Translations under genes and position numbers: made by a program | Assembly: GCA_963705295.1 (NCBI GenBank) | Contig: OY970065.1 | Coordinates: 480,001 to 544,000, forward strand | DNA length: 64,000 bases | Reading direction: 5' to 3' | DNA from: Parachlamydiales bacterium | GTDB lineage: Bacteria > Chlamydiota > Chlamydiia > Chlamydiales > Rhabdochlamydiaceae | The notes under the pieces: generated by a model | What the model saw: the letters and a program-made list of their open reading frames with translations, nothing else | The model's database searches: none | Told to the model about the DNA's origin: nothing | Shown here: one piece after another, positions 13 through 32,430 of the stretch | Position numbering within the stretch: the first letter of the stretch is position 1 | Layout: every line of letters starts with the position of its first letter

Positions 13-1416
13 ATGGAAAAGCAAAATTTCGATCTCGTTGTGATTGGTTCAGGTCCCGGCGGTTATGTCGCTGCAATCAAAGCAGCACAAACGGGGAAAA
101 AAGTTGCGCTCATTGAGAAGGGAGAGCTTGGAGGAACGTGTCTCAATGTCGGATGTATCCCCACGAAAACCTTAATTGCAAATGCCCAGGTTTTGGAAAA
201 AATCAAACATGCCGCAGACTTTGGAATTACCACAGGGCCGATTTCGATCGATTACAAAAAAATGAAAGAGAGAAAAGATGGTGTTGTTGCAAAAATTCGG
301 AAAGGTCTCGAAGGGCTCATTAAATCCAATGGGATCGTAATTCTCCGGGGCACCGCCCAGTTTACTTCTCCGAAAGAACTCAAAGTGATGGGCCAAGACA
401 ACACTCTCATCCATGCAGAAAATATCATCCTTGCTTCCGGTTCAGAACCTGTCGATGTCGCTGCTTTCCCGTGCGATCACAAACAGATTTTCAACTCGAC
501 CTCGATTCTAGAATTGACACAGCTTCCCAAAACCTTGGTCGTCATTGGTGGTGGTTACATCGGTTGTGAATTTGCATCTCTCTTTGCTGAACTCGGGGTG
601 AAGGTGACCGTCGTCGAAGCGCTCCCTTCTATTGTCGCTTTCCAAGGCAAAGCAGTCTCCGATGCGTTAACCGCAGCCTTTAAAAAGCAGGGGATCGATG
701 TTCAAACCAACGTGACCGTCGAGAAAATCGATAAAAATGAAAAAGGAGTCACCCTTCATTTGAAAGATCGCGAGCCGATGAGTGCAGACATCGCTCTCGT
801 CTCCATTGGTCGGAAAGTTGTTTCTCAACACCTTGGTCTTGAACAGGCAGGTGTCTTAACTTCCCCACGAGGCGAGATCATCGTCAATGACAAAATGGAA
901 ACCTCCGTACCTGGTATCTACGCCATCGGAGATGTGACCGGAAAAGTCATGCTCGCTCACGTCGCCTCTCATCAAGGGATCGTCGCTGCCATCAATGCCA
1001 CAGGAGGCGATGCAGTGATGCATTACAATGCAGTTCCGGCCGTCATCTTCACTCTCCCTGAAATTGCAACCGTCGGTCTCACCGAGGAACAAGCCATAGA
1101 AAAAGGATACCCGGCTAAAGTCGGCAAATTCCCTTTTCTCGCCCTCGGAAAATCGATCGCCACCGGAGAAACCGATGGATTTGCTCAAGTTGTCTTCGAT
1201 AAAAAAACCGGACAAATCTTAGGAGCTCAAGTCGTCGGTTCAGAAGCCTCTAATTTGATTGCCGAAATGGCCCTCGCCATTGCCAATGAACTCACGGTCG
1301 AGTGCGTGACCGAAACGATCCATGCCCATCCCACCCTGCCAGAAGCATGGCACGAGGCCGCTCTGCTAGCCTTAGATACGCCTATCCATTTACCTAGAAA
1401 GAGTGCTCGCTCTTAA
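13..1416 (+). CDS. lpdA: Dihydrolipoamide dehydrogenase (E3)
   Basis: GSGPGG FAD motif, GGTCLNVGCIP redox disulfide, GGGYIG NAD motif, C-terminal HAHPT. Confidence 0.97.
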   Translation: MEKQNFDLVVIGSGPGGYVAAIKAAQTGKKVALIEKGELGGTCLNVGCIPTKTLIANAQVLEKIKHAADFGITTGPISIDYKKMKERKDGVVAKIRKGLEGLIKSNGIVILRGTAQFTSPKELKVMGQDNTLIHAENIILASGSEPVDVAAFPCDHKQIFNSTSILELTQLPKTLVVIGGGYIGCEFASLFAELGVKVTVVEALPSIVAFQGKAVSDALTAAFKKQGIDVQTNVTVEKIDKNEKGVTLHLKDREPMSADIALVSIGRKVVSQHLGLEQAGVLTSPRGEIIVNDKMETSVPGIYAIGDVTGKVMLAHVASHQGIVAAINATGGDAVMHYNAVPAVIFTLPEIATVGLTEEQAIEKGYPAKVGKFPFLALGKSIATGETDGFAQVVFDKKTGQILGAQVVGSEASNLIAEMALAIANELTVECVTETIHAHPTLPEAWHEAALLALDTPIHLPRKSARS

Positions 1417-3295
1417 CCCATTCAACCAGCGATACAGCGCGGGCCACATCCTCCCGTGTTAATTGAGGGCATCCAATAAGCTCCAGCCTTCTGAGATAGG
1501 ATAAGGATTTAATGAGAAGGAGAAGAGTTTCAATGGTAATATTACAACTACTCAGCTTAAGTTCTTGTAAGGGAAGATGAGACAGAAAAATAAAGGCTCT
1601 ATCGGATAGATTGCGACAACTTGACAGATTGAGTTTTTGTAATGAAATCAATCTTCCTGCTAAGAATGCAACACCAAGATCTGTGACACCCGGGGTGCTT
1701 AAAATAGAGAGATTCCTCAAACGGGTAAGACCGGCTATATGGATCAAACCGGCATCGGTCATCCAATCATTAGTACCAAGATCTAGGTCTATGAGTTTCT
1801 CCAGTTTGCCAATGAAAGAAAGCGCCTTATCCGTTAGCTTGTTGCAACAAGCTAGATCAAGTATTTTTAGATTAGGTAAACACTCTACGAGAGTCCTGAT
1901 ATCATTATCCGTGAGATTTATATTACACTCCAGTCCGAGTTTTTTTAGTTGGATCATTCTTGGAAAAAAGAGCACATTTCCCAGATTAGATGCGAAAAGA
2001 TTCATAATCCGTAATTGGGAAAGAGTCTGAAAAGATGTGAATGCAGGATCTTCAAATCTTATTTCTCGACAGTTTTGAATACTGAGCTCCCTTAAATCTG
2101 TCAGTCGTGAAAACGAAGCAACATGAGCATCTGAAATTTTGATGCTTTCGAGTCTAAGTTCTGTCAGTTTTTTGAGTTGTGTTAGAGCGGCTAAATCGAC
2201 CTGAGAAACCTGTCCGCAGCCCGTAAAACGAAAACTACGGAGATAAGTAAATTGCGCTATTAAAATCAATAATCCTGTATCACTAAACTCATTGCACCGA
2301 CTAATATCTAATTGCTGCAAGAGCGTGAGTGTTGAAAGGGCCGTTAAAATATTCCCATTAAAATTCTGAATCTGTTCGAATTTAAGGATTCGAAGATCCG
2401 TTAATGTAGAAAGAACTGTGAGGTCATTGCCTTCTATTTTTCCGCGATTGACGTAAGGAAGCTTAAGAGTTTGCAATGAGGAGAAGTTGAGAACAATCTT
2501 CTTTAATAGCTCACCTGTGAGGCAGAGACAACCTTCAAAATTAAGAATAGGGAGATTTCCACGATGCTTTTCGAGAAATTCTAAAATTTCTTTTTCTGTT
2601 TTAAAGCGGGAAAGTACTCCCCTATTATAACCAGATAAAGCTTCTTCAATTGTAGGGTCTGTCACTGCTAATCTGTGATAAATTGTCGTAGCAATTCCCC
2701 ACTGTTCAGGCGTCATTTCTGGGATCGTTTCTATCAATATTTTTCTTGCCTGGTTGGAAACAGAGGTCATCCTCAGTTGATCGGTTTGGCAAATAAAATC
2801 TAGTAAGCTATCTACTTCCATATCGGGGAAAGCCGATTTTCCGTGCTCGAGAATGTTCAACATGAGTCGAAAGTTGCTGAGAGAAACGTCTTTGATTTCT
2901 AAGGCATCACTGCTCCCCTCTCGAAAACTGCCATAAAACATTCTTCGAAAGAATTCGCTGGCGTGAGCAAGCCAGGTTTTAAAATGTCCTGGATAAACAT
3001 GAGTTTGCCCTTCTATTTTTAAGCTGAAGGGTGTGAGGTGTTTTTTATCTTCTTCTCTTTCCATGCGGGGCAGAACTTCAGCACAAATTCTCAAAGCAGC
3101 TAAGACAGTGGGTGGTTTAGAAAATTGCACGGCGTACGCCCAACAGTTATGGACAATGGATGGAAGGAGCTCGGTCGAGGTTTTGTTTAGAAATGCATCT
3201 TGAACAGAGCGTGCAGTTCTACCAAGAAAGGATAAATCAGGAAGTTCTCCTTCCCACGGTTTTGCCAATAATGAGAGATTAGTTAGTTGAGTCAT
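1394..3295 (-). CDS. BTB/POZ-domain plus leucine-rich-repeat protein, candidate host-directed effector
   Basis: BTB-like segment HFKTWLAHASEFFRRMFYGSFREG...IKDVSLSNFRLML, followed by many Cys-containing LRRs (e.g. LKILDLACCNKLTDKAL, LQKLNLSSCRNLSDRAF). Confidence 0.85.
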   Translation of the reverse strand: MTQLTNLSLLAKPWEGELPDLSFLGRTARSVQDAFLNKTSTELLPSIVHNCWAYAVQFSKPPTVLAALRICAEVLPRMEREEDKKHLTPFSLKIEGQTHVYPGHFKTWLAHASEFFRRMFYGSFREGSSDALEIKDVSLSNFRLMLNILEHGKSAFPDMEVDSLLDFICQTDQLRMTSVSNQARKILIETIPEMTPEQWGIATTIYHRLAVTDPTIEEALSGYNRGVLSRFKTEKEILEFLEKHRGNLPILNFEGCLCLTGELLKKIVLNFSSLQTLKLPYVNRGKIEGNDLTVLSTLTDLRILKFEQIQNFNGNILTALSTLTLLQQLDISRCNEFSDTGLLILIAQFTYLRSFRFTGCGQVSQVDLAALTQLKKLTELRLESIKISDAHVASFSRLTDLRELSIQNCREIRFEDPAFTSFQTLSQLRIMNLFASNLGNVLFFPRMIQLKKLGLECNINLTDNDIRTLVECLPNLKILDLACCNKLTDKALSFIGKLEKLIDLDLGTNDWMTDAGLIHIAGLTRLRNLSILSTPGVTDLGVAFLAGRLISLQKLNLSSCRNLSDRAFIFLSHLPLQELKLSSCNITIETLLLLIKSLSYLRRLELIGCPQLTREDVARAVSLVEWVKSEHSF

Positions 3296-5999: not shown

Positions 6000-6085
6000 A
6001 GCAGCAAATATACATTTGCACATTTACTGCTAATTTTTATAGAGTCAAAAAACAGCAGCAAACATGCATTTGCACATTTACTGCT
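6000..6085. repeat. Two direct copies of a 32-bp imperfect palindrome upstream of the ATPase gene (possible operator)
   Basis: AGCAGCAAAYATRCATTTGCACATTTACTGCT at 6000-6031 and 6054-6085 (30/32 identical). Confidence 0.8.
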
Positions 6086-7688
6086 GATATCTGTGTGTCT
6101 CTGTGGTTTCATCTTCGAGATAAGCGAAGCGGAAGTCGAGTTGGAAGAGATAGTTTAGATGGACATTTTTGACGTAGGGTTGCTCGAGGTAGGCGGCTCT
6201 GGCATCGGTTAGGGGGATGGAAGGCATTTCATCGATGAAGATTTCTTCGGCTGCTTCGAGATGCTTCCATTTTTCTTCTTCGGTTGCTGCATTGTAGCAC
6301 GCTTCGGCGTGACGGATGTAATCGGTGTTTTCCCAGCCGGTATAATTGGGTTGGGTATTTTTGAGTTTGAAAATGTCGAGGAGGTTGGCGGGGTCGTCGT
6401 ATTGCATGAGCCAGCCGTACCGGGCGATTTCATGTTCGTTGTTGTAGAATTTTCGGATAAAGATGGGAGAATCGGTTCCTTCGGCTATGGCTTTGATGCC
6501 GAGGTTTTCGAGCCACATTTGTTGGATGGCTTGGATGACCTTGGACCAAAGGTTGTTCGAAACGTAATTGAGTGTGATGACAGGAAACTGGTCTTTGGTG
6601 ATGCCGAGTTGTTCGAGTCCCTTCGCGAAGTGTTCTTTGGCTTTGGTGATATCATTATCTTGAAACCACGGGTGCCATTTCTCTTTTTTTAGAATTTTGG
6701 GGATAAGTCCGAGGGAAGGCGATGGGTTATCAAAATGCAGGACATCTTGCATGATTTTATGACGATCGATCGCGTAGGCGAGGGCTTTTCGGATATGGGC
6801 GTTATTTAAAGGGAATTTATTGGTGTTGAAGAAAAGCCAGTGTGTTCCTGCGCCTTCAATCCAATGAAGGGCGTTTTTTTCTTTAAGTGCGGGAATGGCA
6901 TCGGGGGAGATTTTGGAGAGCGGTTCGCCGAGCCAATCGATTTCACCTTTCTCAAACATGAGAAGAGCGGTTCCTTGGTCTTTCACAATGAAATAATCGA
7001 TTTCATCGAGCCGAGTTTGGTCGGCATTCCAATAGAGGGGATTTTTTTCCAATACGATTTGATTTTGGAAATGGTACTTTTTGAGTCTGAAAGGTCCAGA
7101 GCAGACAAAATGGTTGTAGTCGAGGGGGCTGTAACGCATGCTTTTGTGGACGGGCAAAAAGATCGTATTGATCAGGATATTGAGAAAATTCCGGTGTGGT
7201 TTTTCCAGCTGAATGACGAGGGTTTTATCATCGGGTGAGGTGATTCCGACTTGGTCGATCGACACGGTTCCTAAAACGGCCTCTTTGGCGTTCTTTATAA
7301 AATAAAATAAGTTGGTGTTGGCGGAAGAATAGGCGGGGGTGAGAGCTGCTTTCCAGGTCTCTTCAAAATCGTGGGCTTTAATCGAAGAGCCGTCCGACCA
7401 GAGGCAGTCGCGGATGTGAAATGTATACGTTTGGAAATCTTTTGATACTTCGTAAGATGTGGCTAAATCGAGCTGAGGAGCCAGATTTTGATCCAAATAA
7501 ACAAGCCCTGAAAAGAGCATACGGACGACGCCTTGACTTGCCATATCGACTCCTTTCCGCGGATCCATGGAGTTGATATCCGAACCAAGACAAGTTCGAA
7601 GTGTCTGCCGGGGTGCATGTTGCTGCTCATTTTGACATGCAGTTAGCACTACAAGAAATAAAAACAAAAAACCGATTTTGCGATACAC
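6078..7688 (-). CDS. oppA: Oligopeptide ABC substrate-binding lipoprotein (OppA family)
   Basis: Signal peptide with lipobox LTAC; SMDPR, LFSGL, WSDG, SGPF, KNPLYW, IRKALAYAIDR motifs of SBP family 5. Confidence 0.9.
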   Translation of the reverse strand: MYRKIGFLFLFLVVLTACQNEQQHAPRQTLRTCLGSDINSMDPRKGVDMASQGVVRMLFSGLVYLDQNLAPQLDLATSYEVSKDFQTYTFHIRDCLWSDGSSIKAHDFEETWKAALTPAYSSANTNLFYFIKNAKEAVLGTVSIDQVGITSPDDKTLVIQLEKPHRNFLNILINTIFLPVHKSMRYSPLDYNHFVCSGPFRLKKYHFQNQIVLEKNPLYWNADQTRLDEIDYFIVKDQGTALLMFEKGEIDWLGEPLSKISPDAIPALKEKNALHWIEGAGTHWLFFNTNKFPLNNAHIRKALAYAIDRHKIMQDVLHFDNPSPSLGLIPKILKKEKWHPWFQDNDITKAKEHFAKGLEQLGITKDQFPVITLNYVSNNLWSKVIQAIQQMWLENLGIKAIAEGTDSPIFIRKFYNNEHEIARYGWLMQYDDPANLLDIFKLKNTQPNYTGWENTDYIRHAEACYNAATEEEKWKHLEAAEEIFIDEMPSIPLTDARAAYLEQPYVKNVHLNYLFQLDFRFAYLEDETTETHRYQQ

Positions 7689-7734: not shown

Positions 7735-10677
7735 TTATTGAAACCTAGCCCATTTGAAATCGATGAGGGTGTGGTTGGGCTCTAAGAGTAGGTATTTCTT
7801 TTTCATGAATTGTAGGCAGGTTTCGAAAAGAGGGATGATCGGCATTTCATCGATCAAGATTTGCTCGATACGGATGAGGAGCTCGATTTGCTTTCCTTTT
7901 TCCGTTTCGAGCTGGGCCTCATGCAGCAGGGCTTGCAGGTCAGGATGCGACCATTTGCTGAAATTCATAGGCTCTTCCGGATTGGCAAAGAAATTCAAGG
8001 TGTAGAAAGGGTCGTTGACCCACGGTTGCCAACGGATGAGGGCGATTTGAAAGTCACCGGTTGTCAGTTTGGAGAAGATCGTTTTATAATCGTATCCTTG
8101 GATGGTGGTCGAAATTCCCAATTTTTTTTCCCATTCCGATGATAAAAACTCAGCCGCTGCTTTTCCGAAGACCGTTCGTTGGGTAAACCCAATATTGAGG
8201 GAGGAGAGGGGGATCCCTAACTCTTCGAGACCCTCGGATAAGAGTTTTTGAGCATTTCCTGTTTTGAAAAGAGAAGGATTAGGGGTTTGGCAATGGGATG
8301 TCGGAAGGGGGGAGTAGGCTGGTTTTTTTGGATATTTTAGATTTTCTAAGAGTTGCAGACGATCGATTGCCAAGGCGAGAGCTTTTCGGATTTTATTATT
8401 TTTAAGAATAGGATGGCGCGTATTGCAAACACACCAGTAGAGACCGTGGTCAGGATGAACCATCACTTCATCATCTTCTGTAGGAGTGTAACTATTATTC
8501 CAAGCTCCAAGAGGAGCACCCAGCCATTGAATTTTGTTTTGATAAAACATCTCTTCCGTCTGAGAGTGGTGGCTCGCCGTGATTAAAATCCGGTCCAAAT
8601 GGATGCGTGATATTTCCCAATAATGGGGATTTTTCACAAAGACATAACTGCTATCTCTCTGATTATATTCGATTTTAAAAGGGCCATTACAGACGTAATG
8701 GTTCCCTTCTTCGAAAGGCCAATTCGGTTCATTGATGTCAATTTGGCGGCAAACAGGGGAGAAGAGTGGATGGGCAAGATATTCAAGAAAATTGAGGGAA
8801 GGCGATTCTAATTCTATTTTTAAAGTTAAATCGTCTAAGGCATGAATTCCGAGCTGGTTCATCGCGGCAGCTCCCTTCTTGACGGCTTCGGCATTTTTGA
8901 TGATATAAAAGAGGTAGGCAAAAGCCGTATTGAAACGGGGGGAGACGATTTTTTTCCAAGCGTACTCAAAATCGTAACTGGTGAGAGGTTCTCCGTTAGA
9001 CCAAACGGTGGGACGGAGCCGGAAAAGATAGGTTTTTCGGTCTTCAGAAATCTCCACTTCGTGGGCAATTCCGTTCTCAAGAGACCCTTTCGAACTAATC
9101 CGCATGAGCCCTTCAAAGAGCATCTTTAAAACAAGGGCAGAAACGCCGTCTCCTCCAATTCTCGGATCTAGAGAGCTGACGGGATTTTCTAGGCCGAGGC
9201 GCAAAACTTGAGTTTTTTTAACTTCGTCCCGCCAATAAATCAGCAATTTATCGAGAGACTCGATGAAAAGATTCTGTAGGTGGCTTGTTTCTGTCTCGAG
9301 AAGGTAACCGACAAGATAAGAGTCGTTGAGGGTGAGGGCGATGGAAGCTTTTTTAACTTCGGGTAAATCGAAGGATAAAAGATGGTCTTTGGCTATTTCA
9401 TAAAAAGGGCCGTGCGGGATGCGGAGCATCACGATAAAAAGGTGATCTTTTCTCGAGCTTTTTAGGATATATTGAAAAGAATCGAGTAGAGGCAATTCCG
9501 AAATGTGCAAAAACAGCTGCAGCATGGTTTTTAAAATAGGGAGAGGAAGAATCGCTTGCATCTCGATAGGCGTGATCGAATAAAAGACATTTTCGATCAG
9601 CTCAGGAGAGAGCCCAGGAAGGGCATTTTTAAGAGTGTGCAACGTCTCTTCTTGTTTGATTAGAATGCCGCCATTGAAATCTCGAAATTCGCCGATATTC
9701 TCCTTCAAATAATTCCCTATTTTTTGCCGGGCAGCAAAAAAGTTTAAGGAACCGTCGCTCCTCAAGATGGTGGGATGAGGTGTTAGAAGAATTTTGAAAA
9801 TATAAGCAAAAATAGGTTGATGATCTTTCAGGTATTTCACCAATTGTTTTCTCTCTAGAATGAATTGAGAGAACGAACTCCGTTGTTTGATGAGATTGTC
9901 TACAGAAGCTGTCTCATGATTCTCGACTCGGACACAAATCGCCGTGAAGACAAAATCTTCCGCCGTTTGCATATCAAAAGAGATCATGATCTGGGGGAGG
10001 TCGGTGCTCTGATCGATTTCTTGGCTCAACGTTAAAATGTTGCGCAAGACCTCTTCTTGATTCCGAGTCATAAATACAGCCGGAACGACCCGTTCGATGC
10101 GGGAGAGGAGCTCTTCCTCGAGCCCCAGTTTCAATTTTTTGATCTCAGATAGAGTAAAGTACTGGCTACTGTTTTTTTCGAATTCGACATAGAGGGTCTT
10201 GATCCGATCTTCAGCGCCTTGAAAGGTATAAATGGACCCTTTGACAATTTTTAGATCGGGTAAGAATTTTTGGACAGCCTTCAAAAGTTGTTCCTGATCG
10301 AAGAGTTCATACCGATTCAGATAGATCTGGACTAAAATGCCCACGACCCATTTTGAACCAAATGGAAATTCTAATTGCGTCGGCAAGATTCTCAGGGATA
10401 AATAACGGGTTTTAGGTGAAAGAGAGACGAGACTGAGCAATTTCTTCTTTTTGAAATATTGAGAAGAAAGGAGACGGAAAAGATGGTCAGCCGATCTTTT
10501 CTGAGTGAAATCGTGATCAAAGTAGGCAATCAGCCGATCCCGTTCCTTGAAAATGGTCCGATCCAAAAGTTGAGGGAAGCGATCGATCAATTCTTGAAGC
10601 TTCTGATCTAAAATTGTTAATTTGTTTACTTCCACAGGTAAAACGTATTCTAGCGAACGGTTCATTTTCTCCAACAA
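7735..10677 (-). CDS. Giant fusion protein: about 490-aa unassigned N-terminal region plus C-terminal OppA-type (family 5) peptide-binding domain, no signal peptide
   Basis: SBP5 motifs from about aa 490 (SLDPR, LFEGL, WSNG, CNGPF, KNPHYW, RKALALAIDR). The N-terminus is hydrophilic. Likely start is ATG 10665, after GGAG. Confidence 0.85.
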   Translation of the reverse strand: MLEKMNRSLEYVLPVEVNKLTILDQKLQELIDRFPQLLDRTIFKERDRLIAYFDHDFTQKRSADHLFRLLSSQYFKKKKLLSLVSLSPKTRYLSLRILPTQLEFPFGSKWVVGILVQIYLNRYELFDQEQLLKAVQKFLPDLKIVKGSIYTFQGAEDRIKTLYVEFEKNSSQYFTLSEIKKLKLGLEEELLSRIERVVPAVFMTRNQEEVLRNILTLSQEIDQSTDLPQIMISFDMQTAEDFVFTAICVRVENHETASVDNLIKQRSSFSQFILERKQLVKYLKDHQPIFAYIFKILLTPHPTILRSDGSLNFFAARQKIGNYLKENIGEFRDFNGGILIKQEETLHTLKNALPGLSPELIENVFYSITPIEMQAILPLPILKTMLQLFLHISELPLLDSFQYILKSSRKDHLFIVMLRIPHGPFYEIAKDHLLSFDLPEVKKASIALTLNDSYLVGYLLETETSHLQNLFIESLDKLLIYWRDEVKKTQVLRLGLENPVSSLDPRIGGDGVSALVLKMLFEGLMRISSKGSLENGIAHEVEISEDRKTYLFRLRPTVWSNGEPLTSYDFEYAWKKIVSPRFNTAFAYLFYIIKNAEAVKKGAAAMNQLGIHALDDLTLKIELESPSLNFLEYLAHPLFSPVCRQIDINEPNWPFEEGNHYVCNGPFKIEYNQRDSSYVFVKNPHYWEISRIHLDRILITASHHSQTEEMFYQNKIQWLGAPLGAWNNSYTPTEDDEVMVHPDHGLYWCVCNTRHPILKNNKIRKALALAIDRLQLLENLKYPKKPAYSPLPTSHCQTPNPSLFKTGNAQKLLSEGLEELGIPLSSLNIGFTQRTVFGKAAAEFLSSEWEKKLGISTTIQGYDYKTIFSKLTTGDFQIALIRWQPWVNDPFYTLNFFANPEEPMNFSKWSHPDLQALLHEAQLETEKGKQIELLIRIEQILIDEMPIIPLFETCLQFMKKKYLLLEPNHTLIDFKWARFQ

Positions 10678-10762
10678 TCAAATAATTTGCATTAAATGGG
10701 GGGTGTCCTGTAAATTTGATGGCAATCAAGCTGCCGCTGCAGCAAATTTAATGGAGGTTGTT

Positions 10763-11131
10763 ATGAAAACAATGCAACAAGCCAGAGGGACTGACCCGCA
10801 AGTCCAAGCGATGATGGATGAAATGATATCCCATCCAGCTTGGCTGGGCGATATGACCGGGGTTGAAGCTGAAACCCTTTTGCGTCAGAAGCCATCGTTC
10901 ACCTACTTGTTAAGACAAGGTGAAAAAGGAGATCATTTTTATCTCTCGTATGTCAATGGCACCAATTTTATCCATCTTCCCATTACGATCCTCTACTCTA
11001 CTCACCAATGGTTTTATCAAAACTCTTACCCACACTTCGCGAAAGATTTGGTCACTTTTATACCTGATATTATGCACCAAGAAGCAGCAGAGTGTCATCC
11101 ACTTGAGCAATTCGTAATAATGAACTCATAA
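10763..11131 (+). CDS. Small SH2-like domain protein
   Basis: AWLGDMTGVEAETLLRQKPSFTYLLRQGEKGDHFYLSYV...HLPI follows the SH2 pattern (W.G, EAE.LL, FLVR-like YLLR, Y.LS, H..I). GGAGG RBS before ATG 10763. Confidence 0.7.
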   Translation: MKTMQQARGTDPQVQAMMDEMISHPAWLGDMTGVEAETLLRQKPSFTYLLRQGEKGDHFYLSYVNGTNFIHLPITILYSTHQWFYQNSYPHFAKDLVTFIPDIMHQEAAECHPLEQFVIMNS

Positions 11132-11133: not shown

Positions 11134-12468
11134 TTGGATCGAACGAATTTTAGACGTTTTTTAGAGATTTGTTTTCCTGTAATTCTGTTTCTATTCTTAA
11201 TCAATATTACAGGTTATATTGAAAGACTCTTGCTGGCTGATTTTTCAGGGGAGGCACTAGCAGGAGGTCTGAATGGGTTTTTCTTAGCTCGCGTTTTCCA
11301 AACAGCCTGTCTTGCCGTCATTGTTGTCGGTCAGTCATTTGTTGGCCTTTATCATGGGGCTGATCAAGAAAAAAATATTGGGCCTTGCATCTGGCAACTC
11401 ATTTGGTTTTCGGTTCTCTCTACGCTGGTTGTGATTCCACTGGGTTTCTCCGTTGAATGGATTTTATTCAAAAATACTTCAATTTCTAATTCTGAATCTA
11501 ATTATTTTAAACTACTTTGTGTTTTTAATTTTCTGTTTCCTTTAACAAATGCTCTTTCTGCATTCTATTTTGGAAGAGGTATCCTCAAGCCTATCGTCTT
11601 TTTAACCTTGTTTTCTTGCATCCTCAATGTCGTTTTAGATTTGGTTCTAATCTTTGGTTGGGACTTCATTCCTCCTTTAGGGACGACCGGTGCGGCTCTT
11701 GGCAAAGTCATATCCCAAGCTGTTTTATGCCTGAACTTGGCGCTCCTTTTCCTTTCAAAAACGAACCGAGAGAAATTTGGGACCAACCTGTGGAAATTTT
11801 CTCCACGCCTCTTTTGGCATTATATCCGCCCAGGTCTCCATCGTGCCTTGGGGGCTTTCCCAGCCCTGGGTGACTGGGTTCTTGTCTCCCGCTTCATGTC
11901 TCTAAAAAGTGAGCAACACCTGCTTGTCTTTTCGATTGGTAGTACGGTTTTCTACTTTTTGGCTTTTATTGGGGATGGACTATTCCAGACCATGGTGACC
12001 GTAGCCTCAAATTTGATGGGGAAAAAGGAATATTCTAAGCTCTGGAGCTCATTTTTTTCGGGATTCATTCTCCTGGTCGTATTCGGACTTTGTCTCGTTA
12101 TTCCCTTTTTCTTATTTCCTCAGATCATTACAAACTGTTTTAGGAGTTCGTCCTTTTACGGTAATTTACTCGAGTCGTTTGGACAAATGTCGCCTTGGTT
12201 ACTCCTCGCTATTATAGCCTATGGATTGAACGCCCTGGCTTTAGGGCTCGTTGTCGCTGCTAGGGACACCCTCTTTTTATTCTGGTTCTATTGCGGAATG
12301 TGGCTGGTGAGTTTCGTCCCCATCTATTGTTCTATGGAATGGCTCCATTTCCCTCCTGAAACCTTCTGGGCCCTTGTGATGTGCACCAATTTGGTTGCAT
12401 GCTCTATGTTTCTATGGCGAGGATCCAAAGAGAAATGGCAGATCGACAATTGGGCACCTGTAAACTAA
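11134..12468 (+). CDS. MATE family transporter
   Basis: About 12 hydrophobic segments; LNVVLDLVLIFG...PPLGTTGAALG is a MATE hallmark. Confidence 0.88.
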   Translation: MDRTNFRRFLEICFPVILFLFLINITGYIERLLLADFSGEALAGGLNGFFLARVFQTACLAVIVVGQSFVGLYHGADQEKNIGPCIWQLIWFSVLSTLVVIPLGFSVEWILFKNTSISNSESNYFKLLCVFNFLFPLTNALSAFYFGRGILKPIVFLTLFSCILNVVLDLVLIFGWDFIPPLGTTGAALGKVISQAVLCLNLALLFLSKTNREKFGTNLWKFSPRLFWHYIRPGLHRALGAFPALGDWVLVSRFMSLKSEQHLLVFSIGSTVFYFLAFIGDGLFQTMVTVASNLMGKKEYSKLWSSFFSGFILLVVFGLCLVIPFFLFPQIITNCFRSSSFYGNLLESFGQMSPWLLLAIIAYGLNALALGLVVAARDTLFLFWFYCGMWLVSFVPIYCSMEWLHFPPETFWALVMCTNLVACSMFLWRGSKEKWQIDNWAPVN

Positions 12469-12519: not shown

Positions 12520-13812
12520 TTGACAGGAGAACGAATCGAGATGTCTTCAGGGAAAGGAACCGATCTTATTGATCGGGTCGCTTGTATTGTTTTAGCAGGA
12601 GGTCAAGGGACGAGACTCTTTCCTCTGACGCAGACACGGTGTAAACCTGCAGTCGGATTTGGAGGTCGGTATCGACTCATCGATATACCACTTTCCAATG
12701 CTTTAAACTCAAAACTTACAAAGCTTTTTGTTATTTCTCAGTATTTTGCATCCAATCTTCATCAACATATTTTAGCGACCTATAAATTCGATATGTTTCA
12801 AAAAGGGGACATTTCGCTCCTTTGTCCGGAAGAGGATGTTGGGAAAAAAGTCTGGTTTGAAGGAACTGCAGACGCTGTTCGAAAAAATCTCCAACACATC
12901 ATGAAATCTCCAGCCGAGTACTTTTTGATTCTTTCGGGAGATCAATTGTACAACATCGATCTTGCCGATTTGTTGAACTATGCGAGAGAAAAAGATGCCG
13001 ATCTTGTCATTGCTTCGCTCCATGTTCAAGAACCTGAAGCCAAGCGGATGGGCTTGCTCCGTGTCGATAGTGATCTGCATGTGAAAGAATTTAAAGAAAA
13101 ACCAAAAGAAAAAGATGTTCTTGGGTCTTTGTGCACAACCCATAAAAACAAGTCGTGTTACTTAGCCTCGATGGGGATTTATGTTTTTAAAAGAGATGTT
13201 CTCGTTTCACTCCTGCAGGAACAACCCGGAAACGATTTTGGCCACCATCTAATCCCTTACCAAGCGAGTAAAGGGGGAACCTATGCTTATATCTACGATG
13301 GTTATTGGGTCGATATCGGTACCATTGCTTCATTTTTCGAAGCCAATATGAGTCTTTTAGATCAAAAAAACTGTCTCCAAACCTACAATGAATCGAATCC
13401 CATTTATACACGTCCACACCACCTTCCCAGTCCTCTTGTCATCCAGACGAAAATCAATCGATCCTTCATCAGTCAGGGAGCGATCATTGAAGCGGATGAA
13501 ATCGATCATAGTATCTTAGGGGTACGGTGCCGTGTTGGGAAAGGGACAAAGATTCGAAATTCGGTTCTCATGGGTCATCAGTCTTATACGCCACCATCCC
13601 ATCAACAACCGCCTCTTCCCAAGGAGTTTACGATCGGAGAAAACTGTCTCATCGAAAAGTCGATCATCGATGAACACACCCGCATCGGAGACAATGTCCG
13701 ACTCGTCAATGAAAAGAAATTAGAAAATTATGATGGAGATGGGGTCTACATCCGTGACGGAATCATCATCGTCACGAGTGGTACACAGCTCCCAGATGGT
13801 TTTTCAATTTGA
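12520..13812 (+). CDS. glgC: Glucose-1-phosphate adenylyltransferase
   Basis: LAGGQGTRLFPLT..RCKPAV.FGGRYRLID, GTADAV, ASMGIY, YWVDIGT. Alternative start is ATG 12541. Confidence 0.96.
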   Translation: MTGERIEMSSGKGTDLIDRVACIVLAGGQGTRLFPLTQTRCKPAVGFGGRYRLIDIPLSNALNSKLTKLFVISQYFASNLHQHILATYKFDMFQKGDISLLCPEEDVGKKVWFEGTADAVRKNLQHIMKSPAEYFLILSGDQLYNIDLADLLNYAREKDADLVIASLHVQEPEAKRMGLLRVDSDLHVKEFKEKPKEKDVLGSLCTTHKNKSCYLASMGIYVFKRDVLVSLLQEQPGNDFGHHLIPYQASKGGTYAYIYDGYWVDIGTIASFFEANMSLLDQKNCLQTYNESNPIYTRPHHLPSPLVIQTKINRSFISQGAIIEADEIDHSILGVRCRVGKGTKIRNSVLMGHQSYTPPSHQQPPLPKEFTIGENCLIEKSIIDEHTRIGDNVRLVNEKKLENYDGDGVYIRDGIIIVTSGTQLPDGFSI

Positions 13813-16281
13813 AGGCGCGATGGCCTCGACAACTCCTGTCAACGGGTTTAAGAAAACCTTCGGTGCCAAAACTCTCCCTTCTGTGAAATCAAAGAGATCA
13901 TCGAGACTTCCTGCGATCCTTTCATAAGACGCCTTAGGAAGGGGTTTAAGATTCCAATTTTCAATGATGAACCTTAAGACAGAGGTATGATCGGTCGTCA
14001 CATGGCTCATATAATTGTCTTTCGCCCAGGGTGAGATGACAAAAAACGGGAGTCTCTGTGCATGTCCCGCGCGCAGATCGGCCTCTGGGATACCTGCTTT
14101 GACACCCCGTCTTGCAATCTGTCCTTTTGGGTCGAGTTTCGGATTCACTTCCCAAGCGGAACTTTTAACTAAAGGTGGCGGTACATGGTCGTATGTTCCG
14201 TTTCCTTCATCCCATTGGATAAAAATAGCTGTTTCGTCCCAGAAGGGTGAGTTCATCAGTTTGGTGACAAGATTAACGAGCGCAATCTGGTTATCGAGGG
14301 CATTAGAATTGGTCCGATGACCATTTTGATAGGTCGGCAACCGGATATACGAGACCGCCGGTAGAACACCAATATCGAGGGCATTGAAGAAATCATCAAT
14401 ATCGTAATTGTGATTCGCTTGATCTTGTTTTCCAACATTTTCTAGCGAACTATAAGGTGCCAAGTGAGGATTGGACGTCGAAGCGAAATAATCGAAAGGG
14501 TGATCCCCATCTAAATAATCGATCTGAGGTCCTACGATTTGAGCAATGACATTCGTGGATCCGGCGGGAGGCGTAAAATTAAGAGAGGTATGGAACAATA
14601 AAACCAGATTATTAAATTCTGGCATGATGGCTTGGAGCTCCGCAATCACGGAGGGTGGAAATAAAGCTTGATAAGGGAGAACAATCGCATTCGGGTCGCT
14701 CAGTGATTGTTTGGGCAGCCACCCACCTCTGAAACATCCCCACGTCACATTTTTCTTGTTGAGACGATCTCCAATATTTTTAACCTTAGGATTGATCAGG
14801 TTGGAAGTAAATTGCTGTGCAAATTGCACAACGCCTGAAACACCCGGGAATTGAATGGATGCCCTAAATGTAGGATCCGTTTGAAACCAAAAAATCAAAA
14901 ATTCTAAGATCGATAGATCATTTTTCGATGCAACCCAGTTGTAGAGGACAGTATTGTTAAATGTCGCCAGAATATCGCCCCACTTAACAAATTGAACACC
15001 CTCTGGAATCGGAGGCAATTGAGGATTAGCGCTCGCTGTATTGGCGATGGCTGTGAGAAGATTGACATCGATGAGAAGATCGGGAAACTCTGGAATCAGT
15101 TCAGAATTATTGCCCGATCCCCAGTTGATATTGCCGATAATACTTTCACCATATCCTGTGGTAAAGTTTCTATCACTGGTCGCATAGAACTGAGCGTAAT
15201 TCCAAAGTCCTGTAAACGTATTTCCATCCCAATAATCCATCGCAATGTTGGCACCTTGCCCATAGGTCGCATCGAATGATTTTTGGACACCTCCAACGGT
15301 GTAGAGGATGGGTGGTGGTGTCGTTTGTTTATAGACAAACCGGTCCATCAATCCATTATCGACATCGATTTGTGTCCGGGTATATCCATTCGATTCAAAA
15401 TTGGTGAGTTCTTGGTTTGGAGCCAGTCTTGTCGGATTTACTCTTCCACTTCCATTTTGGCCGATATTCCGGTTCGTTGTGAGGTAATTTCCTCCTGTCA
15501 AAGGATCAATGGTTAAGAGATTATCGGGTATTTCTGTATCTTCTTTGGGGAAGAAAGGTGTTTCTCCGGGCAGATTTGCTGCGAAAGGATAGGTCCCAAA
15601 CATCGCATCAAAAGGAACATTTTCATTGAGAATGACAACTACATGTTGGATGGGAGTCGTCGTTTTTTTGTGATCTTTAATTTTCACCCCTGTCATTGAC
15701 TTGGATGGCAGCGAGGGAATCCATCCCTCCGGAGCCTCGGGGAATTCTAGTCGTTCAAAATGAGAAGTGACGCTTTTAACATTAAAATGGACCTTTGCAG
15801 AAGAGCTCGCTTTAAATGTGATGACAAAATGGTACCGAATTCTTTCACCTTGTTGAAGAACATCAAAGACGGGCGACTCTACACTAAGGCTCGATTTAAC
15901 TTTTTTCCCTTTACAAGTTCGAAGAGGTGGCTCTGGCTCCAATGTGCAGACATCAAAGATATGTTCATCTCCAACACAGAGGATCTTAGGATCTGGCAAA
16001 TCGCCATTGAAAATATATTTCTTCAGCTCTGCAGCTACCGTCGTAAACTCACCTTCTCTCACGCGGTATCTAAAAGAAACACTTTCGAGTTTCGCATTTT
16101 TTGGAATCTTAAAGGAGACGTCTACGGTAGCTGCTCCATTTTGTGGAATAACAAGAGTGATTTTTCCGTTTTTCTCTCCAAAGGTTTGTCCTTTATCATT
16201 TTCTACCTTCCATTTTAAATCGTTGTTGGAAGCAAAAAGGAAGGTAAAACAACTGAGCATTAAACAAAGAAGTATTTTCAT
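13804..16281 (-). CDS. Secreted phosphoesterase of the phospholipase C / acid phosphatase AcpA family, with N-terminal extension
   Basis: Signal peptide; IQHVVVILNENVPFDAMFGTYP, NGLMDRF, LPAVSY, WDEGNGTYDHVPPP, ISPWAK, DHTSVLRFI. Confidence 0.85.
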   Translation of the reverse strand: MKILLCLMLSCFTFLFASNNDLKWKVENDKGQTFGEKNGKITLVIPQNGAATVDVSFKIPKNAKLESVSFRYRVREGEFTTVAAELKKYIFNGDLPDPKILCVGDEHIFDVCTLEPEPPLRTCKGKKVKSSLSVESPVFDVLQQGERIRYHFVITFKASSSAKVHFNVKSVTSHFERLEFPEAPEGWIPSLPSKSMTGVKIKDHKKTTTPIQHVVVILNENVPFDAMFGTYPFAANLPGETPFFPKEDTEIPDNLLTIDPLTGGNYLTTNRNIGQNGSGRVNPTRLAPNQELTNFESNGYTRTQIDVDNGLMDRFVYKQTTPPPILYTVGGVQKSFDATYGQGANIAMDYWDGNTFTGLWNYAQFYATSDRNFTTGYGESIIGNINWGSGNNSELIPEFPDLLIDVNLLTAIANTASANPQLPPIPEGVQFVKWGDILATFNNTVLYNWVASKNDLSILEFLIFWFQTDPTFRASIQFPGVSGVVQFAQQFTSNLINPKVKNIGDRLNKKNVTWGCFRGGWLPKQSLSDPNAIVLPYQALFPPSVIAELQAIMPEFNNLVLLFHTSLNFTPPAGSTNVIAQIVGPQIDYLDGDHPFDYFASTSNPHLAPYSSLENVGKQDQANHNYDIDDFFNALDIGVLPAVSYIRLPTYQNGHRTNSNALDNQIALVNLVTKLMNSPFWDETAIFIQWDEGNGTYDHVPPPLVKSSAWEVNPKLDPKGQIARRGVKAGIPEADLRAGHAQRLPFFVISPWAKDNYMSHVTTDHTSVLRFIIENWNLKPLPKASYERIAGSLDDLFDFTEGRVLAPKVFLNPLTGVVEAIAPSN

Positions 16282-23314: not shown

Positions 23315-24256
23315 ATGAACGAAAAAACAATTTTAGTGACGGGTGGTGCGGGTTTTCTCGGTTCGCATCTATGTGAGAAACTTCTTGCACGGGGTCACCG
23401 GGTTGTTTGTCTCGATAATTTCTTCACCGGATCGAAAGAAAATATTGCCCCTTTTTTAAAAAATTCTTTATTTAGTCTGATCGATCACGATGTCTGTAAT
23501 CCATTTCACATGAAAGTCGATGAGATTTATAATCTCGCGTGTCCTGCATCTCCGATCCATTATCAATCCGATCCTGTCCGAACGACGAAAACCGGAGTTT
23601 TGGGTGCGATCAACATGCTCAGCCTGGCGCACGCAAATCAAGCGAAAATCTTGCAAGCTTCGACGAGCGAAGTTTATGGTGACCCACAGGTCCACCCGCA
23701 ACATGAAGGGTATTGGGGAAATGTCAATCCTATCGGGAGAAGATCGTGCTACGATGAGAGTAAACGGCTTGCTGAAACGTTATTCATGGACTACTTCTGG
23801 CAACATAATCTTCCGATCAAATTGGCCCGTATTTTCAATACGTATGGTCCCAACATGCACCCAGAAGATGGAAGGGTTGTTTCCAATTTCATTGTACAAG
23901 CTCTTCAAGGCAAACCTTTGACGATCTATGGGGATGGAAGCCAGACCCGATCTTTCTGCTATGTCGATGATTTAGTGGACGGGTTGATGACCCTCATGTC
24001 GACCGATCTCGCCATTACGGGCCCCATCAATTTTGGAAATCCTTCCGAATTCCGGATTCTCGAGCTTGCTGAGCTGGTATTAAAAATGACCGGTTCTTCC
24101 TCGAAGATTATTTTTCATCCACTCCCCTTGGATGATCCGAAGCAACGAAAACCCGATATTACTTTGGCCAGAAATACCCTTGCATGGGCGCCCAAGATTT
24201 CTCTTGAAGAGGGACTCTCCTCGACGATAGCTTATTTTAAGAAAATTATTCTTTAA
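23315..24256 (+). CDS. UDP-glucuronate decarboxylase (UDP-xylose synthase family)
   Basis: [42 protein letters not shown]. Confidence 0.92.
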
Positions 24257-27137
24257 CCTTTTCTTTTCCTTTACCACTTCCCATTCGGACAAGTTCATTC
24301 AGGCGGCTTTCGGCCATCTCCGATATCCCTTGAACAATTTTAACCAGCTGGTGGTGGAGAGAAATAACAGGGTGCTGCGGGGCAGGCGATTGTTTGGTTT
24401 TCTTTTTAACAAGGGTAAAACCACGTATCTCATCCATCGCTTCTTGATCGACTCTTTTTCCGTGGGCGGCTAGTTCAATAGCCTGCATACGCCAAGCAAT
24501 ACCGGAAGGGTTTTGTCCTGTAGCGTGTCGAAACCGATCAGGATATTGAGCTCCGTAGCCGATATTCAACTCGGCGACGACCCTTTGATGTTCAGGAGTC
24601 TCTTGGTGGTCTCTGGAGGCTCTATAATCTTCTAAATTGTGGATCATTCTGAGTTGTCCAAACCTCTGAGCATGGAGAAGTTTCTCGATATGCTCATCTA
24701 AAAATTGAGCCAAGGTTAAAATATTGTCGCCGAGTGCAGAAAGGTTTTTTGTCTCTGGAGATTCGATGAGACATTCTAGAGCTTGCTTGAGGAGTTTTAA
24801 GGTATAGAGAATGTCACCGCATATCGCTGCTTTAACAGGATCCATCGACACTGTCGTCATCAACTTTTCCGCTTTACTGAGGCATCTTTCCAAAATAGAA
24901 ATAGGAGTTTCTAGGGAGTCTCTAAAAAAGGGTGTGAAAGGATGGACCGCCGTTTCTTTTGGTCTCCCCTGAAAATACGAAGTGGTGTCGCCGGAAGGAA
25001 ACTGTGGCAGTAAGATTTTTAGACACGAAAATGTACTATCCATCAGCTTAATAAGATCTCTGAATTCCACTTTCTCCGATAAAAGCCACTGAAGAGCTAA
25101 AGGCACGGGAAATTGATGTTCGCTTAAGAAAAGTTGACTGGTAAATGGGTATCGATGGAATACGGTGCCATAACGGACCGCCTCCAAAACATCTGCCGGT
25201 TTATTGATTTGGCGAGCCATTTCTACGTGATCATGACTAAATTCATCTGTCTTTAAACAGGAAGTGATCGCTTGTTCGGTCATGATACAGCACGGCTTGA
25301 CAGTCGCGTAGGTGAGATAAGGGAGAAACCGTGTATTTTCTTCTCGGATAGCTTTTCTCAAAAGATGGGCGGAAGACAATAAAATCGCATGATGGTGGGC
25401 CACATGTTTCAAGCTATCCGCAGCAAATTCTGTCGGAGCCTTGAGGGTAGAAATAAAAAGCCTCTGAAGATGGAATGGATGACTCGGCTTCATCTTCTCT
25501 TCTTGAGGAGGAAGAGGTTGAGGAGCGGGTAGATCCTCTTCTTTAAATGTTAAATCGAACTTGATAGAAGGTTGCCGTCTTTTTTTGGGTGGATGAAAAA
25601 GGGTGGTGAAAGCAGAAGAAGGTGGAGAAGTATCTTTAATCTCTTCCAGTTTTAATGTCTTTAGAACAGTCTCTAGAACGGTGAGTCCTTGGTAAAAAGA
25701 TTGGAGAAGAACGGAAAGCTGGAAAACCAGTCGATAGCTTAAGAGAATTCCCTTTTCCAATTCTTCCATGCTCTCGCGACGCTGGGCACTTTTTTTCAGT
25801 TTTTCAAACTCCGCTCTACTATGGACCCGGGATTTTTGTTTTGCTTCTTCTAAACGCTTTAACTCCTCTATTAATCTCCGTTGCTGAAAAGCCAATTGTT
25901 GAAAACTATCAGCGAGTTTTGATGAATTTGCAAGCATTTCCAAGCTATCTTCCAAACTCCTTGTCTTAGCTCCGTCCCCAAGGACCATTTTCATTAGATT
26001 GCCACCGAGAGAGAGATTTCCAAGCAGTGCTTCTTTCTCTTCTGTAGGAGAATGTGTTTGATCAAAAATGGGGGGCTTTTCCTCTTGCTGAATCCGCTCA
26101 GTCTGCTCTTTCGATAAACATGAAGAAAATAAATCTAAACGGTCGTGGCATGATTGTTTTAAAAGAGTAATTTGTTTCTTTAAGAACGATAAATCGTCTA
26201 AAAATTGACGGATTGCAGAAAACAATACGGGGGAAGTATCTCCCATGAGCTCCATAATCCATTCAAATTGCTCATGAAAAATTCTCTTCCTTGCTTGATA
26301 GACACGGAGCAATCGTTCCATCCGCTCGAAGAACAGTTTATTATCATGAAAGGTTTCTCGAACCGGATCAGGACACCTTTCACTTTTTGCTGCTTTGCAT
26401 AGTGCTGCTAATTCTTTTCTCTTTGTAGAGGGGTGGAACTCTTTTTGAATACCCATCATCTCGACATCCATCACAGCAAGTGTTTGGTCCATAAAAAGTT
26501 GGAAATGCCGGATAAAATAAGGACAGTTTTCAGAAGGTGGTTTTTCTTTGGCCTCCAGCTTTCCTAGAGCTTGAGCAAAGGTTTTCCCGTTAAATTCAGG
26601 TCCTGACATGAAGAATTTTAGTGCCTGCTTGAGACTCTCTGCATGAGGCTCCTTTAAAATGGGAGCCACTTGAGGAAATCGACTCTCAAGGTGTTTGAGC
26701 AAGGCTTGAAACCGTTTTCCATTGTCAGCCCTAAATGCATCGAGGGTTAGGTAGTCTAAAAAACCTGCAAAAATTTTGATGCTTTCATGAGGTAGGTGGC
26801 ATTTCTTTTCTAAATCAGAAAAGAAGGCGATCGTGAAGCATAAAATCGCATCGCGGATCTGCATATTTTCGAGATCAGGATGGGCCGCTTCTTTCAACGC
26901 AGACCACGTCGTTTCCCGTGGGGGTCTTAGATTTTGAAGCATCAGCCCAATCAACGATCTCCGGACTTCTTCTTTTTTGGTCTGGGTGGCGAAATCTCCT
27001 TCGGTCAAAACGGGAAGTTGGATCGTACCCGTCGGGTCGACGGCTTCTTGGATAGCTCCCCGTAAAGAAGGATCGGTCATCAATCCCTTCAATAAATCGG
27101 TAAATACATTAGTGCCTAGTTTTATTGGTGGGCTCAT
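24246..27137 (-). CDS. Large hypothetical helical/coiled-coil protein, possible effector
   Basis: 963-aa ORF with no recognised domain. It has a coiled-coil segment ([18 protein letters not shown]) and a Pro-rich linker containing PPKKRR. Confidence 0.6.
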
Positions 27138-27274: not shown

Positions 27275-27562
27275 ATGAGTGGATCAGTTCAACTTTCTGC
27301 AGATCGTCCTCAAGCCCATCCGTTGGTGGTCAATTTAACAAAACATTCTGCCTGGCTTGCCGATCTTAATATCAGTGACTTATCGATTGTCCCTGATGGA
27401 GACAAGTTTAATTTTAATTTTCGTGTTGACGGAAAGATAAGAACAGTCACTTTTAACGCTGACCTAAAGAGTGGCAAGTTGCGTTTCAAAAATGGTCAAC
27501 CGCACGAATGCGAAACTGTAGAAGAATTAATTCAGGAAATTTTCCACCATTGCAGAGCATAG
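27275..27562 (+). CDS. Small protein paralogous to the SH2-like protein at 10763, with an internal deletion
   Basis: AGGAG RBS. Aligns by eye: HSAWLADL/HPAWLGDM, GDKF/GDHF, NGQPH/NSYPH, LIQEIFH/FIPDIMH. Confidence 0.7.
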   Translation: MSGSVQLSADRPQAHPLVVNLTKHSAWLADLNISDLSIVPDGDKFNFNFRVDGKIRTVTFNADLKSGKLRFKNGQPHECETVEELIQEIFHHCRA

Positions 27563-27586
27563 TTTTTGTTGTCTGCGGAGGGGCAA

Positions 27587-32000: not shown

Positions 32001-32430
32001 AATGGCTCAAGCGATCAAAAAGAAAATCGAAGAAACCCTCCAGATCCCGTGTTATATCGAAACGTATCCATGGGGAGTCCTCTTCGAAAAGATGACCCAA
32101 GGAGAGCACCATATCGGAGCCATGGGATGGACAGCTCTTGTCGACGATCCACTTTACACCTTAAACGCGTTCAAACACGTCCACGAGAGAATTAACTTTT
32201 CTAAATGGGAACATCCTCGTTACAAAGAACTCCTTGATAGCGCCAATCGGGAGCTCGACCCCCAAAAACGTCGCCATATCATCGGAGAGAGCGAAGCTCT
32301 TCTCATCGAAGAAGTTCCCCTGATGCCTTTCTATTACGAGATGCAACAATACGCCAAGAAGAGTCATGTTAAACTCCCAGCAAACTGGGAAGTCAAAGAC
32401 ATCGACTTCAAATGGATCTCAATGGTCTAA
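29011..32430 (+). CDS. Giant fusion protein: about 640-aa unassigned N-terminal region plus OppA-type domain, no signal peptide; paralog of 7735-10677
   Basis: SBP5 motifs from about aa 643 (SLDPR, LFEGL, WSNG, CNGPF, KNPRYW). Start overlaps the MATE stop region. Confidence 0.85.
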   Translation: MNLSTSHLHWLESFKSHLVPLTEESREKIAETLFKIPTPQQQFEDQDDFLNWIGESIPCMQWTIQETYPSSLSIYFLFKPSKDISLDEFLLDYLRKWILPDKHLRLFSFCSHPFRLNGQGEFTVLEAHFFVHEQSTAKLLQDTLPSLQKEITFLLNFPSFCKDFLELKIVTYPDRPVLLLNKLTEISKKHHKKLESDLFSEMGRFLVLSSAEFKKRRSSHTVLRIIFSHDLLKKKILKEVRLFPEKRQLSVRLLSSELMFPFGNKTVLGLAIVLHLPDPYEYFDEQHILLAIQQLSSLMQIVQGSFYASQTSHDTVRSLYVEIEKRDGTDFTLQERKLIQAHLEEKLKERIEKLSPSIFMMGNAEEVMKNIFMLSGELNSPFDIPQVIISLEKQTTTDLYFTIVLVRSRKPSDPSLQHYFANIEDDITFLPEKEQVVGYLPMDRVKEACVFQLKIPRFPFTRCDSSTNFYLARKKILTLLTQVLGEVRDYNGGMLLKQGEVLSQLKINLPFVSAELLENLFYSITPIEMQAILPFPVLQDFLTAALEMTQKELPKRESYGCSMQQKEGYSFAILRANDFSLKGCIEEALRKNTAVVSFSISYQESLLIGYLYTSHDLQNQMSFCTAIREGIEEWNKKIKKLRVLRLHFNDWSYSLDPRMGGDTVSSIILKGLFEGLTRRGKDGTLALAAAERVEVSDDLKHYTFHLRKSFWSNGDPVLAHDFEYAWKKILSPHFNTSFAYHFYPIKNAAAVKKGQLPIDQLGISCLNEATLRVELEEPCSYFLELLSHAIFSPVNHRVDQKHPNWFTREGEAYICNGPFYLLKSHPHWGRYELAKNPRYWDAGEVELDKIILLKADIPTALEMYKRDEIDWIGRPASPWDGSYSSSCNETVHISSTYTVYWYVFNVQRYPFHNKNLRKAIHHLIDRKELLDTYGGIGTPAVTPLPISHTQHSHLPIPKSSPELALAYFEKALEELHLQREQFPPIGLMCPTGGTRYQMAQAIKKKIEETLQIPCYIETYPWGVLFEKMTQGEHHIGAMGWTALVDDPLYTLNAFKHVHERINFSKWEHPRYKELLDSANRELDPQKRRHIIGESEALLIEEVPLMPFYYEMQQYAKKSHVKLPANWEVKDIDFKWISMV

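Follow-up and report, generated by a model that had tools for sequence, protein, structure and literature searches.

What does an SH2 domain do in a bacterium when it is encoded as a free-standing protein beside a transporter gene? The question is raised by an open reading frame at positions 10763–11131 (plus strand) of a 64,000-nt stretch of DNA, hereafter the window, from a Parachlamydiales bacterium whose genome assembly is a single contig of 2.13 Mb, 94.7% complete. According to the main text of a 2018 survey, confident bacterial SH2 domains occur in Legionellales only, where they are read as host-directed effectors, and chlamydiae go unmentioned in that text (PMC6208348). The same Legionella picture of bacterial SH2 domains is drawn in a second paper (PMC7542358). 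Our search of the literature, made largely among open-access papers, turned up no account of chlamydial SH2 domains or of the gene module described below.

The domain reported here is a known one; the gene module around it is undescribed. The chlamydial family extends SH2 domains to nine chlamydial families, with a conserved bacterial gene context, and with three clonable genes the function and ligand of an SH2 domain inside a prokaryote become directly testable. If the reading that we propose is true, this would be the first SH2 domain shown to act inside a bacterium.

The SH2 gene and its fold

The initial annotation of the locus, made from the sequence alone, described a 122-aa protein with YLLR at the FLVR position, whose stop lies 2 bp from a MATE ORF. 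Translation of 10763–11131 (plus strand) indeed gives 122 residues with YLLR at 48–51, and the distance of 2 bp separates the TAA ending at 11131 from the TTG that starts the MATE ORF at 11134. The ATG of the SH2 gene is preceded at 5 nt by GGAGG (10753–10757, plus strand), which resembles a ribosome-binding site; an alternative in-frame TTG at 10622 would yield 169 aa, and relatives of the protein begin at the ATG position. The downstream gene (11134–12468, plus strand) encodes a 444-aa MATE-family exporter that matches MatE at 52.7 bits in two stretches (cut-off 24.9) and TIGR00797 at 89.9 bits, below the cut-off of 147.4, and is thus a divergent member of its family. The spacing points to co-transcription of the SH2 and MATE genes. 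A promoter and terminator scan returned six promoter-like sites, with 6.0 expected, and nothing usable.

The fold of the protein (P0001) is that of an SH2 domain, contrary to the outcome that would have refuted the initial annotation. P0001 exceeds the gathering cut-off of PF00017 (22.9 bits against 21; E 9e-5), which 20 of 30 close relatives also match at E<=0.1, and a profile of 30 relatives finds the SH2 structures of PI3K p85 and PLC-gamma (best E 2e-4). Similarly, the AlphaFold model, computed from an alignment of 99 sequences (pLDDT 90.5, pTM 0.82), retrieves SH2-containing structures throughout among the matches listed by Foldseek (E 3.5e-6) and VIA-align. The top fold matches are SOCS2 and SOCS3 (Z 13.1 and 13.0; rmsd 2.6 Å over 104 residues for the best row), and the best PDB sequence match is SOCS4 (E 0.058). 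The model has a central antiparallel sheet with two helices packed around it, as in other SH2 domains, and includes a disordered, S/T/Q/P-rich N-terminus, an extra N-terminal helix (residues 12–22), alphaA (33–40) and a betaB strand that carries Arg51. The likeness to the SH2 domains of SOCS2, SOCS3 and SOCS4 includes the extra helix within the aligned range; P0001 differs from SOCS proteins in being bacterial, in having no SOCS box and in an identity of about 18%. No eukaryotic donor can be named, because Syk, ZAP-70, PLC-gamma and Spt6 give Z values within about 1 of those of SOCS. The Legionella proteins LeSH and RavO were not among the matches listed, namely those of the PDB sequence search, the best 60 of 110 profile matches and the 50 listed by Foldseek/VIA-align.

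A stand-alone SH2 family in environmental Chlamydiota

Used as a single query, P0001 found matches in 76 of 400 sampled Chlamydiota genomes, and the SH2 family profile found them in 113, a number that includes a second SH2 group (see below) and weak matches. The DNA around the single-query matches listed makes up our set of 96 loci. It yielded 91 short sequences of the family, spread over 68 genomes, 27 genera and nine families, as well as 11 loci with longer SH2 proteins. P0001 therefore belongs to a stand-alone SH2 family of environmental Chlamydiota that spans nine families. The genomes are related, so that locus counts overstate independence. Short members remain beside the genes of the module down to 21–30% identity. 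In family f4, the SH2 profile gave a single match (E 9.5e-5).

Records with the neighbouring gene mostly carry Chlamydiota names in their titles (Parachlamydiales, Rhabdochlamydiaceae, Simkaniaceae), some being labeled Verrucomicrobia or uncultured bacterium, and the two nearest Atlas clusters are mostly Chlamydiota. A metagenome scan returned two 21-residue matches, a plasmid search returned no match, and word-index protein searches, which are insensitive, returned 3 and 12 matches. Automatic Pfam tagging already covers some family members. Four very long matches (P0034, P0035, P0082, P0085) were considered as members and dropped, having no SH2 match by Pfam. The 2018 survey lists two SH2 proteins of uncultured bacteria, K2BDF1 and K2EE31, for which its text reports no binding of phosphotyrosine (pTyr) peptides (PMC6208348). 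Both were absent from two supplementary files of that survey and from the accessions of ten clusters, and no tie to the chlamydial family was found there.

Conservation of the gene neighborhood

The steadiest neighbor of the SH2 gene was missed by the initial annotation. It is a gene on the minus strand (7735–10677), transcribed divergently from the SH2 gene, which encodes a 980-aa fusion of ACT-like repeats with an OppA-type domain. Among 85 loci with a short member, the fusion gene lies within 700 bp in 79, although among the 30 loci whose flanks span 1.5 kb, 20 were counted from the C-terminal OppA-type part alone. The MATE gene is found in 65 of the 85, both genes in 60 and either in 84. 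Where the flanks extend to 4 kb (55 loci), the N-terminal region of the fusion is present in 51 and MATE in 43; glgC, the next gene in the source window, is present in none, and a plain solute-binding protein gene (SBP) is frequent, not constant (21 of 55). In the window, this last gene lies directly downstream of the fusion gene and encodes an ordinary OppA-like lipoprotein (6078–7688, minus strand), as judged from Pfam and hydropathy. By contrast, the longer SH2 proteins have neither fusion nor MATE as a neighbor at any of their 11 loci.

All nine families show linkage to the module, and its genes come in at least four different orders or orientations. The commonest layout, in 35 loci, has the three genes on one strand, mostly as fusion-SH2-MATE. 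The fusion is reversed, as in the source window, in 11 loci, and MATE in 17: the adjoining MATE gene lies on the same strand in 48 of 65 loci and on the opposite strand in the other 17. The order SH2-MATE-fusion occurs at L116 and L117, both with a full-length SH2 gene. Gaps are short, at most 26 nt from the fusion stop to the SH2 ATG in 27 of 48 cases and at most 20 nt from the SH2 stop to the MATE start in 33 of 40, the latter figure being biased by the choice of the nearest start. The linkage to MATE is looser than that to the fusion, and three of the five closest relatives of P0001 (L002, L003, L005) have no MATE gene. Short members standing alone were seen at L112, L210 and L211. Among ten members outside the training set of the profile, seven adjoin fusion or MATE, one is cut by a contig end and two are alone.

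The count was also made in the other direction, from the fusion, although it was drawn from the same genome collection and is not independent. The N-terminal region was present in 72 of 79 fusion-retrieved loci, of which 38 had an SH2 gene and 31 MATE. An SH2 gene was found in 29 of the 31 MATE-bearing loci; at 23 of the 72 fusion loci, there is room for an SH2 gene and none was detected. The fusion family exists independently of SH2, given this last count and the occurrence of its N-terminal region in 361 of the 400 sampled genomes.

The window holds a second trio, at 27275–32430 on the plus strand, which begins with a small SH2-family gene and continues with MATE and a long fusion. The first gene (27275–27562) is a degenerate, 95-aa member of the SH2 family (HHalign 96.3%, E 2e-9), which is without the alphaA-betaB stretch carrying the FLVR Arg and retains the motifs H-x-A-W, N-G and, at the C-terminus, I-x-H. 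It is followed after 3 bp by the second MATE gene (27566–29014), whose stop overlaps the start of a second ACT-like/OppA fusion (29011–32430; 1,139 aa); this fusion is the long form, with about 170 extra N-terminal residues. A 963-aa helical protein (24246–27137, minus strand) is encoded divergently from this trio.

Variation in the SH2 slot was observed elsewhere. The SH2 gene is repeated in tandem right after the fusion gene, in three copies at L137 and L150 and in two at L123 and L143, and L220 has two SH2 domains in one ORF. Small ORFs that occupy the slot at L048:4211–4615 and L077:8990–9349 align weakly to the family by HHalign (10% and 19%) and are possibly far-diverged members.

The ACT-like/OppA fusion and a stand-alone ACT-like protein beside aspartokinase

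The fusion proteins are 980 to 1,200 aa long. In that of 7735–10677, SBP_bac_5 matches the C-terminal half (196 bits), and the region ahead of it has no Pfam or NCBIfam match. The best match of this N-terminal region (model pTM 0.46) is the large glutamate dehydrogenase, with a Foldseek E of 2.4e-7 and a modest VIA-align Z of 8.2 (rmsd 3.5 Å, 110 residues). Atlas features likewise place this enzyme best among named families (0.86), which is a lead only. SBP_bac_5 is the sole domain detected in the fusions; no catalytic dehydrogenase domain and no DNA-binding domain were found. The peak hydropathy of the N-terminus is 0.95, as against 2.41 for the neighboring OppA, and that of the whole protein is 1.45; a crude hydropathy scan found no signal or membrane helix, and the fusion probably stays in the cytoplasm. 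At L096:5230–10527, L099:5188–10398 and L106:5476–10551, the fusion is longer, about 1,700 aa, and its ACT-like region is followed by two SBP_bac_5 domains.

The binding-protein fold has been reused as a cytoplasmic sensor in SgrR-type proteins, which are cytoplasmic and combine an SBP_bac_5 domain with a DNA-binding N-terminus. The fusion resembles SgrR as a putative cytoplasmic sensor with a periplasmic-binding-protein fold, and differs from it by its ACT-like N-terminus. GarA, a small FHA protein that regulates the large glutamate dehydrogenase mL-GDH180, offers a precedent: it is a phospho-reader fold that stands alone, and the enzyme on which it acts has an N-terminal ACT* segment (PMC8175468). 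Unlike that enzyme, the fusion has no dehydrogenase domain, and the ACT-like repeats share a chain with an OppA-type domain or lie beside aspartokinase, in addition to the modest Z value noted above.

This second context was seen among 20 loci chosen at the head of the ACT-like match list (L225–L244): in 18 of them, a stand-alone ACT-like repeat protein of 580–670 aa is encoded right after a short, ACT-less aspartokinase. The source genome has it too, at L111:5219–7713 (G000:C1 about 2002218–2004712, minus strand). Its sole aspartokinase is 253 aa long and matches the catalytic part of the models only; elsewhere the enzyme has about 253–270 aa. The stand-alone ACT-like protein is probably a separately encoded regulatory subunit of the ACT-less aspartokinase, to judge from gene order and domain content, and this context of its paralogue also favors a cytoplasmic fusion. 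The ACT-like region, present in nearly all sampled genomes, was found in none of the 29 of family f4, which are small (1.0–1.2 Mb). More generally, the ACT-like family may be a cytoplasmic amino-acid-sensing scaffold to which the fusion adds peptide binding, and in environmental chlamydiae this unannotated family could form a layer of nutrient sensing.

An incomplete phosphate pocket

The pocket positions of P0001 were placed via sequence alignment to the PLC-gamma SH2 domain, and their names follow the usual Src numbering. They are G33 (alphaA2), R51 (betaB5), G53 (betaB7), Y60 (betaC3), H71 (betaD4) and P73 (betaD6). The survey distinguishes two types of pTyr pocket, betaB5+alphaA2 and betaB5+betaD6 (PMC6208348, section 10), and another paper likewise describes betaB5 as accompanied by one more basic residue, which stands at alphaA2 or betaD6 (PMC7530234). 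P0001, with G33 and P73, has neither. LeSH and RavO use Arg at both betaB5 and betaD6, according to the survey text, and the LeSH mutation R71L abolishes binding completely (PMC6208348); the chlamydial family has Pro at betaD6 in 53 of 91 short sequences, including Pro73 of P0001.

Across these 91 sequences, basic residues are rare at alphaA2 (2 sequences) and betaD6 (3); betaB7 is occupied by Gly in 75 and betaC3 by Tyr or Phe in 67. The FLVR Arg (betaB5) is present in 67 and lost in 24, and module linkage persists without it. Several positions are better conserved: W27 (89 sequences), N87 (87), L40 (84), H71 (82) and H24 (81). On quick trees made from few columns, the Arg changed at least three times, with one Arg-less clade of 22 rows that holds all 17 sequences of family f9 and remains within the module. 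Arg51 is intact in P0001 and in all 48 rows of its clade, so that a phosphate or carboxylate ligand is plausible. In addition, betaD3 is basic in 50 of the 91 (Ile in P0001), and the family may bind anions. The SH2 hallmarks claimed initially are thus borne out for the fold and the betaB5 Arg, and the second basic pocket residue is absent; the phosphotyrosine reading that they implied is doubtful on these grounds and from the loss of the FLVR Arg in the 24 sequences, even though Arg51 itself is present.

Other SH2 proteins

A second chlamydial SH2 group comprises proteins of 127–290 aa with a long BC-loop insert and a D-D-P motif, which are never beside the module (L110:4976–5722, minus strand; L156, L167, L169, L171–L177, L215, L217–L219, L221, L222). 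In the longer SH2 proteins, Arg is present at alphaA2 in 11 of 12 and at betaB5 in 12 of 12. The second group is a better candidate than the short family for a pTyr-binding effector. Larger architectures were also observed: a member of the same order encodes a 734-aa protein (L155:232–2436, minus strand) in which SH2 stretches occur four times, and two database proteins, P0067 and P0086, combine SH2 with a U-box or with a tyrosine phosphatase.

What the SH2 protein may do

A near-constant fusion neighbor and a frequent MATE gene suggest that an SH2 domain has been put to work inside the bacterium. With a probability of about 0.5, we read the protein as an intrabacterial, phosphotyrosine-independent partner of the module, a reading drawn from gene context and sequence alone. 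The initial annotation had proposed a role inside the bacterium from the MATE gene; the idea gains support mostly from the fusion gene that it did not name (79 of 85 loci), MATE giving weaker support (65 of 85), and the location is what we infer. The SH2 protein would be a small cytoplasmic subunit of the three-gene module and a non-canonical pTyr reader. The fusion would serve as cytoplasmic nutrient sensor, with ACT-like repeats for amino acids and an OppA-type domain for short peptides. Through its peptide groove, the SH2 domain would bind either the fusion or MATE on its cytoplasmic side, no phosphotyrosine being required, and this binding would couple the state of the sensor to export. 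We consider such specific sensor-to-exporter wiring doubtful. Somewhat better placed, though still tentative, is the broader idea that a eukaryote-type SH2 domain was taken up and made a housekeeping adaptor, independent of phosphotyrosine, that joins a phylum-wide and undescribed ACT-like nutrient sensor to a MATE exporter. For binding without pTyr, the SH2 domains of JAK-family proteins on receptor tails offer an analogy. JAK/TYK2 and Spt6 SH2 domains have no canonical pTyr binding and recognize an acidic residue or pSer/pThr instead, and in TYK2 the FLVR Arg is free to change (PMC7530234). These domains sit in large eukaryotic proteins, whereas P0001 is a free bacterial protein of 122 aa, and the analogy is functional only.

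The protein might alternatively be a type III-secreted effector for host phosphotyrosine or another host motif, lying beside sensor and exporter through shared regulation only, which we regard as rather unlikely. The characterized bacterial SH2 proteins that we found in print are Legionella effectors throughout (LeSH, LeSH1-5, LUSH, RavO, DoSH). According to the survey text, eight of ten tested were translocated; like the chlamydial family, they are bacterial, partly stand-alone, from intracellular organisms and endowed with Arg betaB5, and some do not bind pTyr (PMC6208348). A weak pocket is therefore no proof of an internal role, because some of these non-pTyr-binding proteins are still translocated. 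In keeping with an effector are a type III secretion export gene in the genome, the Arg betaB5 and His betaD4 that P0001 retains besides its disordered N-terminus, and the tandem duplications (L123, L137, L143, L150) and long branches. However, the chlamydial family differs from Legionella SH2 proteins by the lack of a 45-residue insert and by its fixed position next to the sensor-like fusion and MATE. This linkage holds across nine families and several rearrangements, with the fusion in the opposite direction in 11 loci. Moreover, the second basic pocket residue is almost never present, and the chlamydial SH2 group with the fuller pocket is the one that has no module neighbors. The composition of family N-termini (S/T/N/Q/P 0.36, as against 0.26 genome-wide and 0.37–0.39 in ankyrin/LRR proteins) was rejected as a secretion test, since MATE N-termini score 0.36 too; the bias is no higher than that of MATE.

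An intrabacterial role could instead depend on phosphate. Much as in the Spt6 SH2 domain, Arg51 would then bind pSer, pThr or a rare pTyr on fusion or MATE, and Hanks-type kinases of the bacterium itself would write the mark. The source genome has four Hanks-kinase matches and one FHA protein, Spt6 SH2 is among the sequence and fold matches of P0001, and it is described as binding pThr via the FLVR Arg (PMC7530234). In addition, the betaB5 Arg is present in 33 of 36 pairs with a short fusion and 14 of 35 with a long one, largely within one clade. Nevertheless, we hold this reading unlikely: the Arg was lost at least three times, including in all family f9 sequences, with linkage retained; betaB7 is Gly; and an unsystematic look at the loci showed no recurring kinase neighbor. 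Among the Tyr, Ser and Thr columns of the fusion, none tracks the Arg beyond kinship. Kinship explains the covariation of fusion columns with the Arg and likewise a mirror-distance correlation (rho 0.51), and both were set aside. In the 94.7% complete genome, GNVR (BY-kinase) and LMWPc (low-molecular-weight tyrosine phosphatase) had no match, which agrees with the pTyr-independent reading, but these blanks are weak because a PF00017 search with the same tool missed P0001 in its own genome. Finally, linkage might be passive, the SH2 gene having been captured once beside the fusion and spread laterally as a cassette, with no shared function. Lateral spread could account for the mixture of eight families in the 48-row clade, and degenerate copies, such as the 95-aa gene of the window and the barely alignable slot ORFs of L048 and L077, would fit it. 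Yet adjacency is kept down to 21–30% identity, the distance from the fusion stop to the SH2 ATG is small, as given above, and the module survives inversion and reordering that glgC does not, which makes a passive cassette very improbable.

Other genes of the window

Two further genes of the window were recorded. A 633-aa protein with BTB and LRR (1394–3295, minus strand) is a eukaryote-like effector candidate, and an 825-aa protein of the phosphoesterase family, phospholipase C-like, is encoded at 13804–16281 (minus strand) with a probable signal peptide.
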